Part shown: positions 35,119-39,402 of the stretch, piece by piece
Layout: each line of letters opens with the position of its first letter
How positions within the stretch are numbered: the first letter of the stretch is position 1
Assembly: GCA_964652055.1 (NCBI GenBank)
Contig: CAZZAD010000002.1
Coordinates: forward strand, 1-46,946
From: an uncultured Burkholderiaceae bacterium
GTDB taxonomy: Bacteria; Pseudomonadota; Gammaproteobacteria; Burkholderiales; Burkholderiaceae_F
Length of the DNA stretch: 46,946 bases
Direction of reading: 5' to 3'
The notes under the pieces: model-generated
What the model saw: only the letters and a program-made list of their open reading frames with translations
Databases searched by the model: none
What the model was told of the DNA's origin: nothing
Made by a program: the position numbers and the translations under genes

Positions 35119-36609
35119 TCAACCCGGGCCCACAGAGTCACTGGTACCCACCTCAGAAAAACACAGATCGATCAACCGTCTGAATGCACCACCATCCAAC
35201 GCTCCCCAGTGTGTTGCTTGCTTGCGTGCTGACTGGATGAGGGGTTCCCGCAACTCATGATTACCAACCAACTTGAGCGCTTCTCGGAAACCATCTTCGT
35301 CATCCACACAAAGCACCTGGGGCAAATCTCTGTATTCAGAATACTGATACCCATAGCAGTCGTAGTTGATCACAGGGATTCCACAAGCAAGCGCCCATTT
35401 GATGGTAGAAGAAACACACGCCACGTAAATATCTGCCAGAGGCAACAATTCCACCACAGGGGCCGCAATCATGGTGACCCCCGTGCCACGAATCAGGGCA
35501 CTGGCCCGCTCTGAGAGGTTGGGGTGCGGACTGATGACAACATTGCAATGGGCCAATTGCGCCGGCAAACACGCAAACGCAGACACAAGATCGGCATAAC
35601 TCGGGTAAACGCCTTGGCGGCAAGGAAACTGATCTGGCGGCATAGCAACGACTACCAGTGGGCGATCCCGATCCAGTCCACATCGCGCAAACAGTGCCTC
35701 GCGATGCCTGTCGCGGCCGCGGAGCAAATCGGCCAAGATGTCTTGAAATGGATGGCCGATCACTCGAAGTTGGTTGGGCAAAAAACCAAATTCGATATAG
35801 GTCGCTTTGATCGCAGCACTTTCCAACGCAATGGCATCTGCGTGCCCAGCATTGACCAGCCACGGATTGAATGGCGCCGTCATGGTTAGCTCACGCGCCA
35901 GCAGTTGGTAATACGGCAGTCGCGTAATGGCATAGCCCTCGCCTTCACTGAGCCAACGAGGCAGATGTTGGCGAACCCATTCGGACTGAAGCGGGTTGAC
36001 CGCGTGTGTCGGGCTGAACTTGTATGCGTTGACCGCTTCCTGAGCAGACAGTGCCCCATAGCTCAGCACCACCGACCTGATCCGGCGCCTTCTGGCGCTT
36101 TCGACCCATGCGTAGCTATCACGCTCAACATTGTCTTCCGGCAATATCACTGCATCAACGTTAAGTCGAGCCAGCCAGTCGTCACAGAAGTTGATGCGAC
36201 GCCGTATCGCATCAACCTCTGCCCAAACCCGTAGACGTTCAGCTTCCGGAAGCGCTGAAGTCAGTGCTAAGGCATGCGCAGGAATATCCGGCTCCAGGCG
36301 CGCCTCCACCCCATTCATGCGTGCCAGCAAATCGAGGGGCAGTCGAGGTGAGTCAGCAGACAACCACCCGGAGAGTCGCGATGCGACATCGGCCAACCCT
36401 CCCGACACTGACGTTTCCTCAACGTAGACCGAGCCCCGCGCGCTGGCCTCGGCCTGATAGCGATCAGATTCGGGCAAACAGTACGGTGACCACAAGATGC
36501 AGTCGAACTCCCCGCAATCACGCCCCCATTCAACCAACTTCATCCAGGCCTGAAAGTTGCCAGGCTCGTACACCACGCATAGCAGTCTTCTACGCCTACT
36601 CGAGTTCAT
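35119..36609 (-). CDS. Uncharacterised GT-B-like putative glycosyltransferase with HP motif (paralog of 37753..39402), 496 aa
   Basis: I chose ATG 36609 (MNSSRRRR), which overlaps the upstream stop (ATGA). The C-terminus VVAMPPDQFP...ISPHPNL...ADIYVACVSSTIKWALACGIPVINYDCYGYQYSEY is collinear with the 549-aa protein. Confidence 0.5.
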   Translation of the reverse strand: MNSSRRRRLLCVVYEPGNFQAWMKLVEWGRDCGEFDCILWSPYCLPESDRYQAEASARGSVYVEETSVSGGLADVASRLSGWLSADSPRLPLDLLARMNGVEARLEPDIPAHALALTSALPEAERLRVWAEVDAIRRRINFCDDWLARLNVDAVILPEDNVERDSYAWVESARRRRIRSVVLSYGALSAQEAVNAYKFSPTHAVNPLQSEWVRQHLPRWLSEGEGYAITRLPYYQLLARELTMTAPFNPWLVNAGHADAIALESAAIKATYIEFGFLPNQLRVIGHPFQDILADLLRGRDRHREALFARCGLDRDRPLVVVAMPPDQFPCRQGVYPSYADLVSAFACLPAQLAHCNVVISPHPNLSERASALIRGTGVTMIAAPVVELLPLADIYVACVSSTIKWALACGIPVINYDCYGYQYSEYRDLPQVLCVDDEDGFREALKLVGNHELREPLIQSARKQATHWGALDGGAFRRLIDLCFSEVGTSDSVGPG

Positions 36610-37763
36610 GCCGTCTTTCTTCCCACAAGGCTCCTGCCTGTCAGCTGCCCGATTAGCCGCAGCGCATTGTCCAGCGGCACGCCGGGACTGCCAAAGGCGC
36701 TCCTGCATGCCCAGGCCTGACGCCGCCGCTCAGTGGGTTCGAGACCAGCTCGAAGAGCGAAATCCAGACTTGCGCCATCATGCGCCGCAAGAGCGATTCC
36801 CTGTGAAACCAAGGGAAACGCACTTAGTCCGGTGGCTGGCCGCCAGTACGCACGCACATCGTCCGGGTAGTCAACGCACACAACGGCTACCTCGGGAGCA
36901 TCCACAGCACACATCATGTAGGCCGCATCAAGAGCAACTGTGGAAAAACAGTGCAAGACAAGATCCGCGGCCGCGATCGCCATCTCAATCGGCAGTGACT
37001 TGACCAACACCGGATGCGCACCGCTGTCACGCAGTAGCGACATCGTCCAGGAACTCGACTCCCTGGTCTCACGCGGGTGCGGCTTGTAAAACAACGTCAC
37101 GGGCCCTAACCGCGCAATGGCCGCACCAACATCACGCAGCACCTGACCATAACCGGCGAGTCCGGCAAGATCTTGTCCAAAGTAACCAATGACCGCAGAG
37201 GCCGTATTCGTCAAACCAATCATCTCGCGCCCCTGACAGCGCAACTGCGCAAAATCCCGCGTCAGATACTCTGCATGCTTGAGCGAGCCAATCACGTGGG
37301 CCGTTGCACTCGTGCGCTGGCAGGTCAGTGACGCGGCCAAGGCATCGATGACCAAGTAATGGTCGGGCCGGTAAATTTCCGGCCATACATCACCCCAAAA
37401 ATCTTGAACCACCAGACTCGGAATACCCACACGGCGCGCCGCATCAATGAGCATGCGATCAATGCCGCAGTCAGCCACCAACGAACGTCCACACACAACT
37501 GCTGACGCTCCAAAGCGCAGAACCTGTTGCCCAGCCAAGGGGGCTGCGTCCGCGTATGTGGCCTCATCTACATCAGCACCCAACCACGCACCCACCGTGA
37601 CATACGGTATCTGGCGGGATGAAAAGTAAGCTTGCGCCGGACCTTGGGCAACTACCAGACACTTCAAACCACGCGCCCTTGCGCCGGAGGCGAGGGCAGC
37701 AATATGCCCTGCAGCGCCGACATCACAACACGCCAGGATCAGATCCAACGAGTCAGGCGGCAT
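36606..37763 (-). CDS. Uncharacterised GT-B-like putative glycosyltransferase with HP motif, about 385 aa
   Basis: Contains LFYKPHPRET followed by ADLVLHCFSTVALDAAYM. I chose ATG 37763 (MPPDSLDLIL), an 11-nt overlap with the upstream gene. Track start 37874 would overlap by 122 nt. Confidence 0.45.
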   Translation of the reverse strand: MPPDSLDLILACCDVGAAGHIAALASGARARGLKCLVVAQGPAQAYFSSRQIPYVTVGAWLGADVDEATYADAAPLAGQQVLRFGASAVVCGRSLVADCGIDRMLIDAARRVGIPSLVVQDFWGDVWPEIYRPDHYLVIDALAASLTCQRTSATAHVIGSLKHAEYLTRDFAQLRCQGREMIGLTNTASAVIGYFGQDLAGLAGYGQVLRDVGAAIARLGPVTLFYKPHPRETRESSSWTMSLLRDSGAHPVLVKSLPIEMAIAAADLVLHCFSTVALDAAYMMCAVDAPEVAVVCVDYPDDVRAYWRPATGLSAFPLVSQGIALAAHDGASLDFALRAGLEPTERRRQAWACRSAFGSPGVPLDNALRLIGQLTGRSLVGRKTA

Positions 37764-39402
37764 CTTGCACACGAGCACCTTCGACCGGCCCATGAGGGGG
37801 TAATGCCCGCTCTGGCATTTGCACCGGCGCCGCCAAGGCGTGCCCATCGACACCCGATAACTCCGCCAGACCACTCATGATGCGATCCAAGTTCATGCCG
37901 GTGGCCTCAGAAAAATGGGGTGCGCGCTCGGCAATGCGAGAGCGCACTTGCGTCAACCGCTGCGGATTCTCAAGGAGCGCCGCACACGTGGTGTACAGCT
38001 CGGCGGGCGTGCGAATCGTCATAGCACCTGCCTCATCAAACTCCGTATAGCCGTATAGGTAGCCGTCGAAGTTAATCGTCGGTATCCCGCATTGCAAAGC
38101 CCAGAAACTCGTCGAAGAGACCGTGGATACAAAAATGTCGGCGCAATCAACATACTCAATCAAGCCACCTCGAAGCACGTGCACGCCGGCGCGCTGCAGA
38201 CTGCTTAACAACTTCGGATCCGTCAATGTTGGATGCAAACTGACGGCGACATAAGCGAGTCCGGCCTCGTGAATCGCCTGAATGATCTGAACGAACTGCT
38301 GACACAAGTCCTGGTACGTCGCGCACCCGAGCGCCTTACGCGGATATTGATTTGGTGGCCATGAGACAACGATCAGTCGCCCCACGCGCGGACCTCCCCA
38401 ATTCTTATCTTGCGATCTATGTTGTTTCTTCCCCCGACAGATAGAGGCAAGTAACCGGCTCTTGCGGTCAGGAGAACTCGCCGCCCCACGTACCAACACG
38501 TCACTCCACGCCGCCCCAGTAAGACGCAATTGCGCCGGAGGTATTCCTGCTTTTTTGTAGTAATCAAAGGCCCACCTAGAAGGCACAAAGACAACACCAC
38601 GACCCGAGTTAGGCAGCCAAGGTTCCCCAGGGGTCAGCCCCAGTCTGTCAGCCACCCAGGCAGCAACCAAATTGACACGGCTATACACCTTCCCACGCCT
38701 GACATTCAGCCATCGTCGACATACTTTCGAGGCGAGCCATCTGTCCACAAAGCCTCTAAGTTGATTATGTCCAGAGTGCGCAAAGGTCTCAATAAGTTCA
38801 CGCGTCGTTGGCGGCATGTTGAACGGCACAATGGCCGTTCTTATCCCAAAACGCTCGCCCACCATGGACAGAATTGCAGTTACTGATAACGCATAATCCT
38901 GCCCGCTAAGTATGAGCCGTGGACTGTACGTCAGGAATATGCGCTCAGCTTGCCGCAACTCTCTGACTAGCATCCTCATCGCGTCACCCTTGCCGGTCAC
39001 ACGTCGACGCTGGCCAAGTAACGTATACCCGACCCTGGCCATGCGCCGATACGCCATCACCACTGTCGACAGCAGGGTCAGTTTGGGGTCCCATGGCGCT
39101 GGGCGCAGTCCATTCCCCTGCTTAAGAACTTCCTCGGAAAATGTTCTGAAATAACCGCTTTCTGAATCTGCATCCAGTTGCGTACGCACACTGGACACAT
39201 CGCTCCCCAACTGAATCCATGACCACTTTTCGAGCTCCACCAACTGACCATGCTCATGCACCAAGCCATATCCATGAGCAAATACAAAGACAGGATGCAA
39301 GCCGAGCCGCAATTCAATCTCACGACTGAGTGACAGCAATGCACCAAACTCACCGTACTCGGAAACAGCAACGAGCACCGACCCACTTTCAATTACCGTC
39401 AT
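37753..39402 (-). CDS. Uncharacterised GT-B-like putative glycosyltransferase with HP motif (paralog of 35119..36609), 549 aa
   Basis: ATG 39402 has an AGGA just upstream. The C-terminus reads IVVSWPPNQYP...VSLHPTL...ADIFVSTVSSTSFWALQCGIPTINFDGYLYGYTEF. Confidence 0.5.
   Translation of the reverse strand: MTVIESGSVLVAVSEYGEFGALLSLSREIELRLGLHPVFVFAHGYGLVHEHGQLVELEKWSWIQLGSDVSSVRTQLDADSESGYFRTFSEEVLKQGNGLRPAPWDPKLTLLSTVVMAYRRMARVGYTLLGQRRRVTGKGDAMRMLVRELRQAERIFLTYSPRLILSGQDYALSVTAILSMVGERFGIRTAIVPFNMPPTTRELIETFAHSGHNQLRGFVDRWLASKVCRRWLNVRRGKVYSRVNLVAAWVADRLGLTPGEPWLPNSGRGVVFVPSRWAFDYYKKAGIPPAQLRLTGAAWSDVLVRGAASSPDRKSRLLASICRGKKQHRSQDKNWGGPRVGRLIVVSWPPNQYPRKALGCATYQDLCQQFVQIIQAIHEAGLAYVAVSLHPTLTDPKLLSSLQRAGVHVLRGGLIEYVDCADIFVSTVSSTSFWALQCGIPTINFDGYLYGYTEFDEAGAMTIRTPAELYTTCAALLENPQRLTQVRSRIAERAPHFSEATGMNLDRIMSGLAELSGVDGHALAAPVQMPERALPPHGPVEGARVQDAA

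Follow-up and report, generated by a model that had tools for sequence, protein, structure and literature searches.

Bacterial nonulosonic-acid transferases are poorly known, and the literature that we found describes only the Maf proteins, the Tannerella enzymes and KpsS1 of glycosyltransferase (GT) family GT118. In Tannerella forsythia, deletion of Tanf_01245 or TFUB4_00887 (BFO_1060 is the counterpart in strain 92A2) removes the pseudaminic acid (Pse) or legionaminic acid (Leg) derivative from the O-glycan; the enzymes were described as GT-B/TagB-like proteins with His-Pro (HP) and D/E-D/E-G motifs, and there were no predicted legionaminic-acid transferases at the time of that report (PMC5420450). 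Families GT99 (WbbB), GT107 (KpsC/KpsS), GT118 (KpsS1, Pse) and GT140 (KrkA) have a modified GT-B fold, use Kdo (3-deoxy-D-manno-octulosonate) or Pse linked to cytidine monophosphate (CMP), act in assembly that depends on ATP-binding cassette (ABC) transporters and are very divergent in sequence; a QXXXD motif is defined for such retaining ulosonic-acid transferases (PMC12887879). The O-antigen locus of Legionella pneumophila serogroup 1 combines a legionaminic-type pathway, there neuABC, with the acetamidino genes HisH/HisF and with Wzm/Wzt, and its product is a legionaminic-acid homopolymer. To our knowledge, the polymerising transferase of this O-antigen has not been identified so far, and we found no polymerase for legionaminic-acid chains in the literature searched. 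The most variable part of the L. pneumophila locus, open reading frames 6-11 next to wzm, has no assigned function and was proposed to serve in O-antigen modification (PMC3766260). Here we describe a stretch of 46,946 nucleotides (nt) from an uncultured Burkholderiaceae bacterium (contig CAZZAD010000002.1, positions 1 to 46,946; hereafter the window) that resembles the Legionella locus in its legionaminic-type pathway, its acetamidino genes and its Wzm/Wzt exporter, and in which three genes of unassigned family, here called A, B and C, follow wzm.

We propose that A, B and C act with D, encoded upstream of wzt, as cytoplasmic GT-B transferases that build a Wzm/Wzt-exported glycan from CMP-activated nonulosonic acids, and we put the probability of this reading at about 0.6. 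Gene structure, paralogy, fold, motif invariance, synteny and a natural D-B fusion are directly established. Gene A (37753-39402, minus strand, 549 residues) lies directly downstream of wzm and is followed on the same strand by B (36606-37763, 385 residues, ATG at 37763) and C (35119-36609, 496 residues, ATG at 36609). A and B overlap by 11 nt (ATGCCGCCTGA, 37753-37763), B and C by the ATGA at 36606-36609; these frames, lengths and overlaps are as stated in a preliminary description of this DNA, and the peptide strings it quoted from A, B and C are all present in the translations. The N-termini of homologs agree with the start of C, and for B they favour the 385-residue frame over a possible GTG start that would give 422 residues. 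Directly upstream of A, as already described, stand the minus-strand genes for Wzm (39428-40291, ABC-2 permease of a polysaccharide exporter, PF01061, a conserved neighbour of A) and Wzt (40288-42057, exporter ATPase of 589 residues, ABC_tran at residues 391-521, matching NCBIfam models of TagH/Wzt-type export ATPases), which overlap by GTGA. Downstream of C follows a minus-strand cassette (32249-35083) of an S-adenosylmethionine (SAM) methyltransferase (34358-35083), a divergent NeuB-like synthase with a SAF domain (33268-34341), the third synthase of the window, and an APH-family kinase (32249-33271), the last two genes overlapping by 4 nt. The gene spacing is tight on both sides of A/B/C, and a single operon of D, Wzt, Wzm, A, B, C, methyltransferase, NeuB-like synthase and kinase, running from 43352 down to 32249, is therefore probable. 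None of A, B and C of the window has a hydrophobic segment, which fits assembly in the cytoplasm before ABC export. The idea that A is anchored in the membrane was accordingly dropped, such a segment being found only in distant A homologs: proteins P0039-P0045 carry a strongly hydrophobic insertion in a variable region at residues ~105-150 (Kyte-Doolittle 19-residue mean up to 2.6), which may be a membrane anchor in those lineages.

How are the three proteins related? A and C had been called paralogs, and BLASTP bears this out (E=3e-26, 29% identity over 261 residues), while a profile-profile comparison with hhalign matches them at 100% probability and E=1e-59 over 488 columns; the two are therefore homologous over their full length, not only in their C-termini. 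B has no significant BLASTP similarity to A or C. Its family profile matches that of C in the C-terminal domain at 92-93% probability (E ~5e-7 to 6e-7), with the His-Pro pairs aligned, and does not match that of A significantly. By sequence comparison the three proteins thus fall into two families, A/C and B, and not into the one new family suggested at first, with D to be added as a fourth member. The His-Pro pair is retained throughout: all 33 sequences of the A family, all 26 of the B family and all 36 of the C family have it, as do all 73 of a joint A and C alignment. Among 70 distant relatives of B, which share only 20-30% identity, every one keeps the His, and the Pro is conserved to at least 90%. 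The codons of the invariant pair lie, all on the minus strand, at 38230-38235 in A (His390-Pro391), 37074-37079 in B (His229-Pro230) and 35521-35526 in C (His362-Pro363). Two strands further on, in the C-terminal Rossmann domain, is an S-S-T loop: Ser429-Ser430-Thr431 of A (38110-38118, minus strand; both serines invariant, Thr431 at least 90% conserved), with aligned equivalents in C (Ser400-Thr402, 35404-35412, minus strand) and, as S-T, in B (Ser274-Thr275, 36939-36944, minus strand). By analogy with GT-B sialyltransferases and NeuC, this loop presumably binds the nucleotide phosphate. A and C also share an inserted segment of 70 residues in which Glu191, Arg230, Pro249 and Trp250 are invariant and Trp219 nearly so.

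The judgement that no named family can be assigned holds. As single sequences, A, B and C have no match in Pfam (including none to PF07388 at E<=1) or in the PDB, and specifically none to the GT1, GT4 or GT28 models, to PF01973 (the Maf/MptE-like flagellin nonulosonic-acid transferases) or to PF02350 (UDP-N-acetylglucosamine (UDP-GlcNAc) 2-epimerases); no A, B or C sequence reaches the threshold of PF04464 (TagF/TagB). Within NCBIfam, A and C match neither NF046086 nor TIGR04396, and B alone matches, weakly and around the HP region (14.9 bits against a cut-off of 200 for NF046086 and 12.3 against 125 for TIGR04396). Pfam scans of 73 members of the A/C family gave no recurring family, only two of them matching Epimerase_2, at E>=0.008. 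The profiles of the A and B families returned nothing useful from the PDB beyond weak epimerase matches. All homologs, in 45 clusters for A, 33 for B and 70 for C among 5.8 billion clusters, are unnamed or called 'hypothetical protein', and the literature yielded no nonulosonic-acid polymerase or named family that matches A, B or C. Among 185,579 species genomes, 10 carry C-type genes, and a tblastn search of 72,556 plasmids with C found only two distant matches, both annotated 'hypothetical protein'. B belongs to a much larger group of proteins of ~375 residues, for which a profile search gave 2207 representatives at E<=1e-3 and 338 at E<=1e-30; the source names of ten representatives are again all unnamed or 'hypothetical'. 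On these sequence searches A/C is a rare and isolated new GT-B family, and B is a divergent branch of a large unannotated group related to TIGR04396/NF046086.

This relationship of B is seen more clearly in its relatives than in B itself. When 70 members of the wider B family were scanned individually against the Pfam and NCBIfam models, 16 matched NF046086, the BFO_1060 family (best E=5e-8), and 20 matched TIGR04396 (best E=4.5e-6), all below threshold; eight matched PF04464 (TagF), also below threshold, three PF07388 (GT38) and three PF07922 (GT52), both weakly, and none Epimerase_2. The named families recovered in this way are almost all dependent on CMP or cytidine diphosphate (CDP). The Tannerella transferases of NF046086 and of TIGR04396 ('surface carbohydrate biosynthesis protein') are like B in their HP motif, their GT-B/TagB-like character and their position beside Pse/Leg genes. 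They differ from it in that B is ~60 residues shorter than these enzymes of 442-445 residues, and in that they cap a protein O-glycan, whereas the window holds an ABC-transporter polysaccharide locus. The GT38, GT52 and GT80 sialyl- and polysialyltransferases, which release CMP, share with A/B/C the HP pair, the S-S loop and, in the N-terminal domain, an acidic residue behind the fourth strand, but the GT38 (PF07388) and GT52 (PF07922) models are not matched by A, B or C and the D/E-D/E-G motif is not present in exact form. On the A/C side, the transferase reading draws on the match of the C profile to the TagF-like capsule polymerase Cps3D (E=7e-6), on the link of C to B and on the full-length homology of A to C. 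Taken together, A, B and C resemble GT-B enzymes with CMP- or CDP-linked donors (GT38, GT52, GT80, TagF and the Tannerella transferases), although they satisfy the definition of none of these families.

Gene D (42159-43352, minus strand, 397 residues) links the set to one of these families, being a borderline match to PF07388, the GT38 polysialyltransferases (E=8.3e-5, 22.7 bits against a cut-off of 23.3). D has no exact HP, and as candidates for further paralogs of A/B/C, D and two other proteins of the window (519 and 429 residues) were not upheld: hhalign gave a weak link for the 519-residue protein only (38%, at the HP) and none for D or the 429-residue protein. Two metagenomic proteins, P0149 (775 residues) and P0049 (631 residues), are natural fusions of D and B, their N-terminal parts being 42-45% identical to D and their C-terminal parts 54-55% identical to B; in P0149 the D-like part spans residues 23-391 (42% identity) and the B-like part residues 400-772 (55% identity). 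The locus of P0149 (L020, with the fusion at 10001-12328) reads A-like, Wzm, Wzt, D::B, C, radical SAM protein, methyltransferase, NeuB-like synthase. Since D is fused to B in other organisms, it is a fourth member of the A/B/C set, which thereby counts four proteins from three families. An MptE-like (Maf-type, PF01973) gene stands upstream of wzt in Hoeflea (L001 6632-7450) and in Mesorhizobium KR1-2 (L017 6346-7305), the position of D in the window, and may be a non-orthologous replacement of one type of nonulosonic-acid transferase by another; Mesorhizobium liriopis has a further MptE-like copy ~9.5 kb downstream of C (L015 20976-21452).

Genomic context is the strongest evidence for the role of A/B/C. 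The window proteins were mapped onto 20 loci, some of which are overlapping copies of one contig, and homologs of A, B and C recur there with Wzm/Wzt and with legionaminic-type genes, so that the expected co-occurrence with nonulosonic-acid genes and the exporter is borne out. The order B, C, methyltransferase, NeuB-like synthase, APH kinase, counted in at least seven genomes, is found in Methyloversatilis, one Burkholderiales genome, two Hoeflea genomes, Marinicaulis and one gammaproteobacterium; Mesorhizobium liriopis keeps this order without the methyltransferase. In the window, as in Devosia, Mesorhizobium KR1-2 and the two Hoeflea genomes, A adjoins Wzm/Wzt; Mesorhizobium KR1-2 has MptE-like, Wzt, Wzm and A together with legionaminic-type genes (L017). 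In Devosia oryziradicis, Wzt-Wzm-A is accompanied only by a divergent C, and no gene of sugar biosynthesis (neither NeuB nor a kinase) lies within 10 kb; A and C are therefore tied to the exporter and not to a sugar pathway. In another locus (L018) a B-like/C pair lies beside a complete legionaminic-type pathway (dehydratase, aminotransferase, NeuC, NeuB, PtmE-like protein, cytidylyltransferase, WbuX, HisF and HisH) that has its own 2-epimerase, NeuC, and lacks the third synthase and the kinase. On plasmid p6 of Azospirillum lipoferum, a distant A/C relative annotated as hypothetical by PGAP lies between neuB, neuC and an acylneuraminate cytidylyltransferase gene, and a Legionellaceae genome (L011) has two C-like genes and one D-like gene, these relatives being 26-33% identical. 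The HisH-HisF-WbuX genes of the window likewise co-occur with A/B/C homologs.

The predicted structures settle the fold, not the chemistry. AlphaFold2 models of C (predicted local distance difference test score, pLDDT, 93.2; predicted template modelling score, pTM, 0.90) and of B (pLDDT 92.1, pTM 0.89) show two Rossmann domains in the GT-B arrangement, with inserted helical segments at ~75-150 and ~189-262 in C, and Foldseek matches both models to hundreds of GT-B enzymes of the PDB at probability 1.00, with template modelling (TM) scores of 0.45-0.69 and 10-18% sequence identity. On these models B and C belong to the GT-B fold superfamily, and A, through its full-length homology to C, can be placed there too, in line with the preliminary term GT-B-like. 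The same search raises a non-transferase alternative, and its outcome weighs, with several other observations, against our reading. For both B and C the top Foldseek ranks are held by UDP-GlcNAc 2-epimerases (WecB, NeuC and GNE), and TagF, polysialyltransferase, KpsC and WbbB, against which a comparison had been advised, are absent from the top 50. All sequence links of A, B and C to named families fall below the family thresholds. At the position equivalent to D/E-D/E-G the proteins have E158-D159-N160 (C), Q168-D169-Y170 (A) and Q120-D121-F122 (B), none of them the exact motif, and no exact QXXXD occurs either, B having Q120-DFWG-D125, that is QXXXXD, and A and C nothing comparable. With GT99, GT107, GT118 and GT140 the likeness accordingly does not extend to this motif, nor to the Foldseek top 50, and the sole sequence trace of retaining ulosonic-acid transferases is a match to KpsC at E=0.74 over 29 residues. 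In hhalign the C family matches a small NeuC alignment at 92.4% and E=5e-7 over 275 columns, a link equal to that between C and B. The HP pair at the strand end also occurs in 2-epimerases, THPRS of CapG aligning with SPHPN of C, as does the S-S loop (NSSSG of NeuC); in sequence terms both features are common to the 2-epimerases and cannot separate them from transferases. The statement that His-Pro is typical of CMP-releasing transferases is hence true but not exclusive, and the motif alone should not be used to tell CMP-dependent transferases from GT-B 2-epimerases. Finally, most genomes show a tight linkage of C to the NeuB-like/kinase pair, which fits a biosynthetic role as well, and only one cytidylyltransferase is encoded in the window.

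The alternative that survives best builds on several of these points. At least one of the proteins, most plausibly C, would be a NeuC/PseG-type GT-B nucleotide-sugar hydrolase or 2-epimerase that frees a hexose for the divergent NeuB-like synthase, the APH kinase would phosphorylate the sugar, and B alone or B with D would be the transferase, following the logic of the animal GNE-NANS route. UDP-GlcNAc 2-epimerases, including the hydrolysing NeuC/LegG (PF02350) and human GNE, are the best overall fold matches of B and C and share with them the strand-end H-P and the position of the S-S-S-G loop. When C is aligned with NeuC, its Asp159 falls on the Asp of the GDR motif of the epimerase; matches to Epimerase_2 and to epimerases of the PDB exist, although they are weak (E=0.01-0.15 for the C profile against PDB 2-epimerases); and C, the third NeuB-like synthase and the APH kinase form the most conserved trio, present in one locus (L010) without B or the methyltransferase. 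However, the same alignment places a Pro at the His of the epimerase T-H-P and an Ala at the Glu of GGE, so that two of these epimerase residues are not kept in C. The inserted 70-residue segment of A/C, with its invariant residues, is absent from epimerases. Context speaks against this assignment too: A and C are tied to the exporter, as in Devosia, where no pathway gene lies within 10 kb; L018 has the pair beside a pathway with its own NeuC and without the third synthase or kinase; L012 has two C-like paralogs in addition to NeuC; and two to three paralogs per locus are typical of transferases, not of pathway enzymes. We therefore consider this explanation unlikely, if still the strongest of the competitors.

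Only a little less probable is that A, B and C are ordinary GT-B glycosyltransferases using nucleoside diphosphate (NDP) sugars (UDP, GDP or dTDP) and supplying an adaptor or repeat unit with its neutral or amino sugars, the ulosonic acids being added by D, by the 519-residue protein or by enzymes encoded elsewhere. GT1 and GT4 transferases (CalG1, GtfB, WaaG and MshA) are mixed among the top Foldseek ranks with scores similar to those of the epimerases, the window encodes enzymes of GDP-mannose and other NDP-sugars, and D and the 519-residue protein are indeed further candidates for ulosonic-acid transfer. The lack of any GT1, GT4 or GT28 Pfam match for A, B and C argues the other way, as do the sub-threshold matches of B relatives almost exclusively to CMP/CDP-dependent families, the fusion of B to a GT38-like module and the association with nonulosonic-acid genes across unrelated taxa. 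Least probable of all is that A and C are TagF-like phosphotransferase polymerases with a CDP-alditol or sugar-phosphate donor, making a teichoic-acid-like phosphodiester polymer for Wzm/Wzt: in the PDB the C family significantly matches only the TagF-like domain of Cps3D (8qoy; E=7e-6 over 210 residues of the C-terminal half, with the HP His of C aligned to a His-His of Cps3D), PF04464 is matched by eight of the 70 B relatives, Wzt scores best against TagH-type teichoic-acid export ATPases and the cassette contains a kinase, but neither the window nor the related loci examined yielded genes for making CDP-glycerol or CDP-ribitol (TagD, TarIJ type), the threshold of PF04464 is not reached by any A, B or C sequence and the consistent neighbours are nonulosonic-acid genes. 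The resemblance of C to TagF/TagB proteins, which are polymerases feeding ABC transporters, lies in the GT-B-like C-terminal domain with a phosphate-binding His at the end of its second strand, whereas the N-terminal halves are not detectably similar. Taken by sequence, the remote signal of A/C is weaker than that of B and ambiguous, a TagF-like polymerase, B and NeuC being linked to A/C with about equal strength.

What would assembly look like if A, B, C and D are CMP-ulosonate transferases? The chain would be started on undecaprenyl phosphate by the WbpL/WecA-type enzyme of the window (24151-25209) and extended in the cytoplasm. The C-terminal Rossmann domain of each enzyme would hold the nucleotide, with the HP His and the S-S/T loop contacting the phosphate, and a conserved acidic residue that follows strand four of the N-terminal domain, for which Asp159 of C, Asp169 of A and Asp121 or Asp125 of B are candidates, would act on the acceptor or on the anomeric carbon. 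The paralogs A and C probably form different linkages or act on different acceptors. We infer the transferase activity, the CMP-ulosonate donor, these residue roles and the division of labour from the comparisons above. The donor is most likely a legionaminic-type sugar with a 5-acetamidino group; pseudaminic acid or the sugar made by the third synthase may serve as well. The preliminary description had presented the proteins as candidate pseudaminic or legionaminic acid transferases or polymerases; the resemblance of the wider B family to the Tannerella enzymes and the gene context agree with this, with the qualification that the context points more to legionaminic-type sugars and the third-synthase product than to pseudaminic acid. 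A more specific version, which we offer tentatively and think possible rather than probable, is that A/C is a previously unrecognised GT-B family that forms, with B and the GT38-like D, a four-module polymerase of legionaminic-type homo- or heteropolymers exported by Wzm/Wzt, while the cassette of methyltransferase, NeuB-like synthase and kinase supplies a special, possibly chain-terminating ulosonic-acid residue added by one of the paralogs. If this were true, these proteins would show what sort of enzyme polymerises polylegionaminic O-antigens of the Legionella type. If A/C, B and D are nonulosonic-acid transferases, they would add two or three new GT families to CAZy, would be candidates for the chemo-enzymatic synthesis of the Leg/Pse glycans used in vaccines and antibodies, and would offer, as D, Wzt, Wzm, A, B and C, a portable gene set with which ABC-transporter assembly of acidic nonulosonic polymers could be tested.

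The sugar supply of the window differs from the two CMP-nonulosonate pathways first reported. It has three NeuB-type synthases, namely PseI (12723-13766), a NeuB/LegI-type enzyme (29290-30477) and the divergent NeuB-like synthase downstream of C, which scores 150 bits against PseI/NeuB cut-offs of 340-400; a second cytidylyltransferase was sought in the window and not found, so that one (18150-18962, minus strand, CTP_transf_3) stands for all three. The legionaminic-type pathway (24864-32209, plus strand) comprises a PglF-like dehydratase, an aminotransferase, a NeuC-like 2-epimerase, the NeuB/LegI-type synthase, a PglD-like acetyltransferase and a PtmE-like CBS-nucleotidyltransferase, and contains no LegF-like gene. 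A minus-strand set that makes acetamidino groups (43670-46445) consists of HisH (43670-44317), HisF (44358-45119) and a WbuX-type N-acetyl sugar amidotransferase (45123-46445). The pseudaminic pathway, also on the minus strand, is represented by PseB, PseC, the cytidylyltransferase, PseI and a fused protein of 548 residues with a C-terminal GNAT (PseH-type) domain and an N-terminal part that matches no family and is presumed to be PseG-like. Additional genes in the pseudaminic cluster (13796-19863, minus strand) encode a formyltransferase, a PIG-L-type deacetylase, a class-III aminotransferase and an aldo-keto reductase, which suggests a non-standard N-acyl pattern on pseudaminic acid. At the end of this cluster lies the gene for the 519-residue protein (10105-11664, minus strand), which has its HP as CHPNW, matches TIGR04396, PseG and Epimerase_2 weakly and, with its hhalign link of 38% to the C family at the HP, is by sequence a candidate for a further ulosonic-acid transferase; the adjoining gene (8813-10102, minus strand) encodes the 429-residue protein, which matches nothing. 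Apart from A, B, C, D and the 519-residue protein, the window provides only one GT2 and the initiating enzyme as transferases for its three ulosonic-acid pathways. Its GC content is 58%, and the closest homologs come from Methyloversatilis and Burkholderiales.

Some minor observations concern the cassette and the exporter. A role of the kinase and methyltransferase as a WbdD-like chain terminator of the methyl-phosphate type was considered; among PDB sequences the kinase matched only CotS/YtaA-type kinases and the methyltransferase only generic ones, with no WbdD, and the idea was set aside as unsupported. Wzt proteins typically carry a C-terminal glycan-binding domain, and Methyloversatilis and L020 have a Wzt with the usual Wzt_C domain. 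The Wzt of the window has instead an N-terminal extension of ~380 residues without a Pfam match ahead of the ATPase domain, and this long form recurs in Hoeflea, Devosia and Mesorhizobium KR1-2 (46-51% identity over 474-542 residues). In both Hoeflea genomes a weak cytidylyltransferase-like open reading frame lies between the methyltransferase and the NeuB-like synthase (L006 ~12184-12880; L008 12196-12867); compared with PseF of the window, the L008 frame is 25% identical over 228 residues and the L006 frame has only a 70-residue match (12184-12378). The presence of such a frame at this place suggests CMP activation of the third-synthase product.

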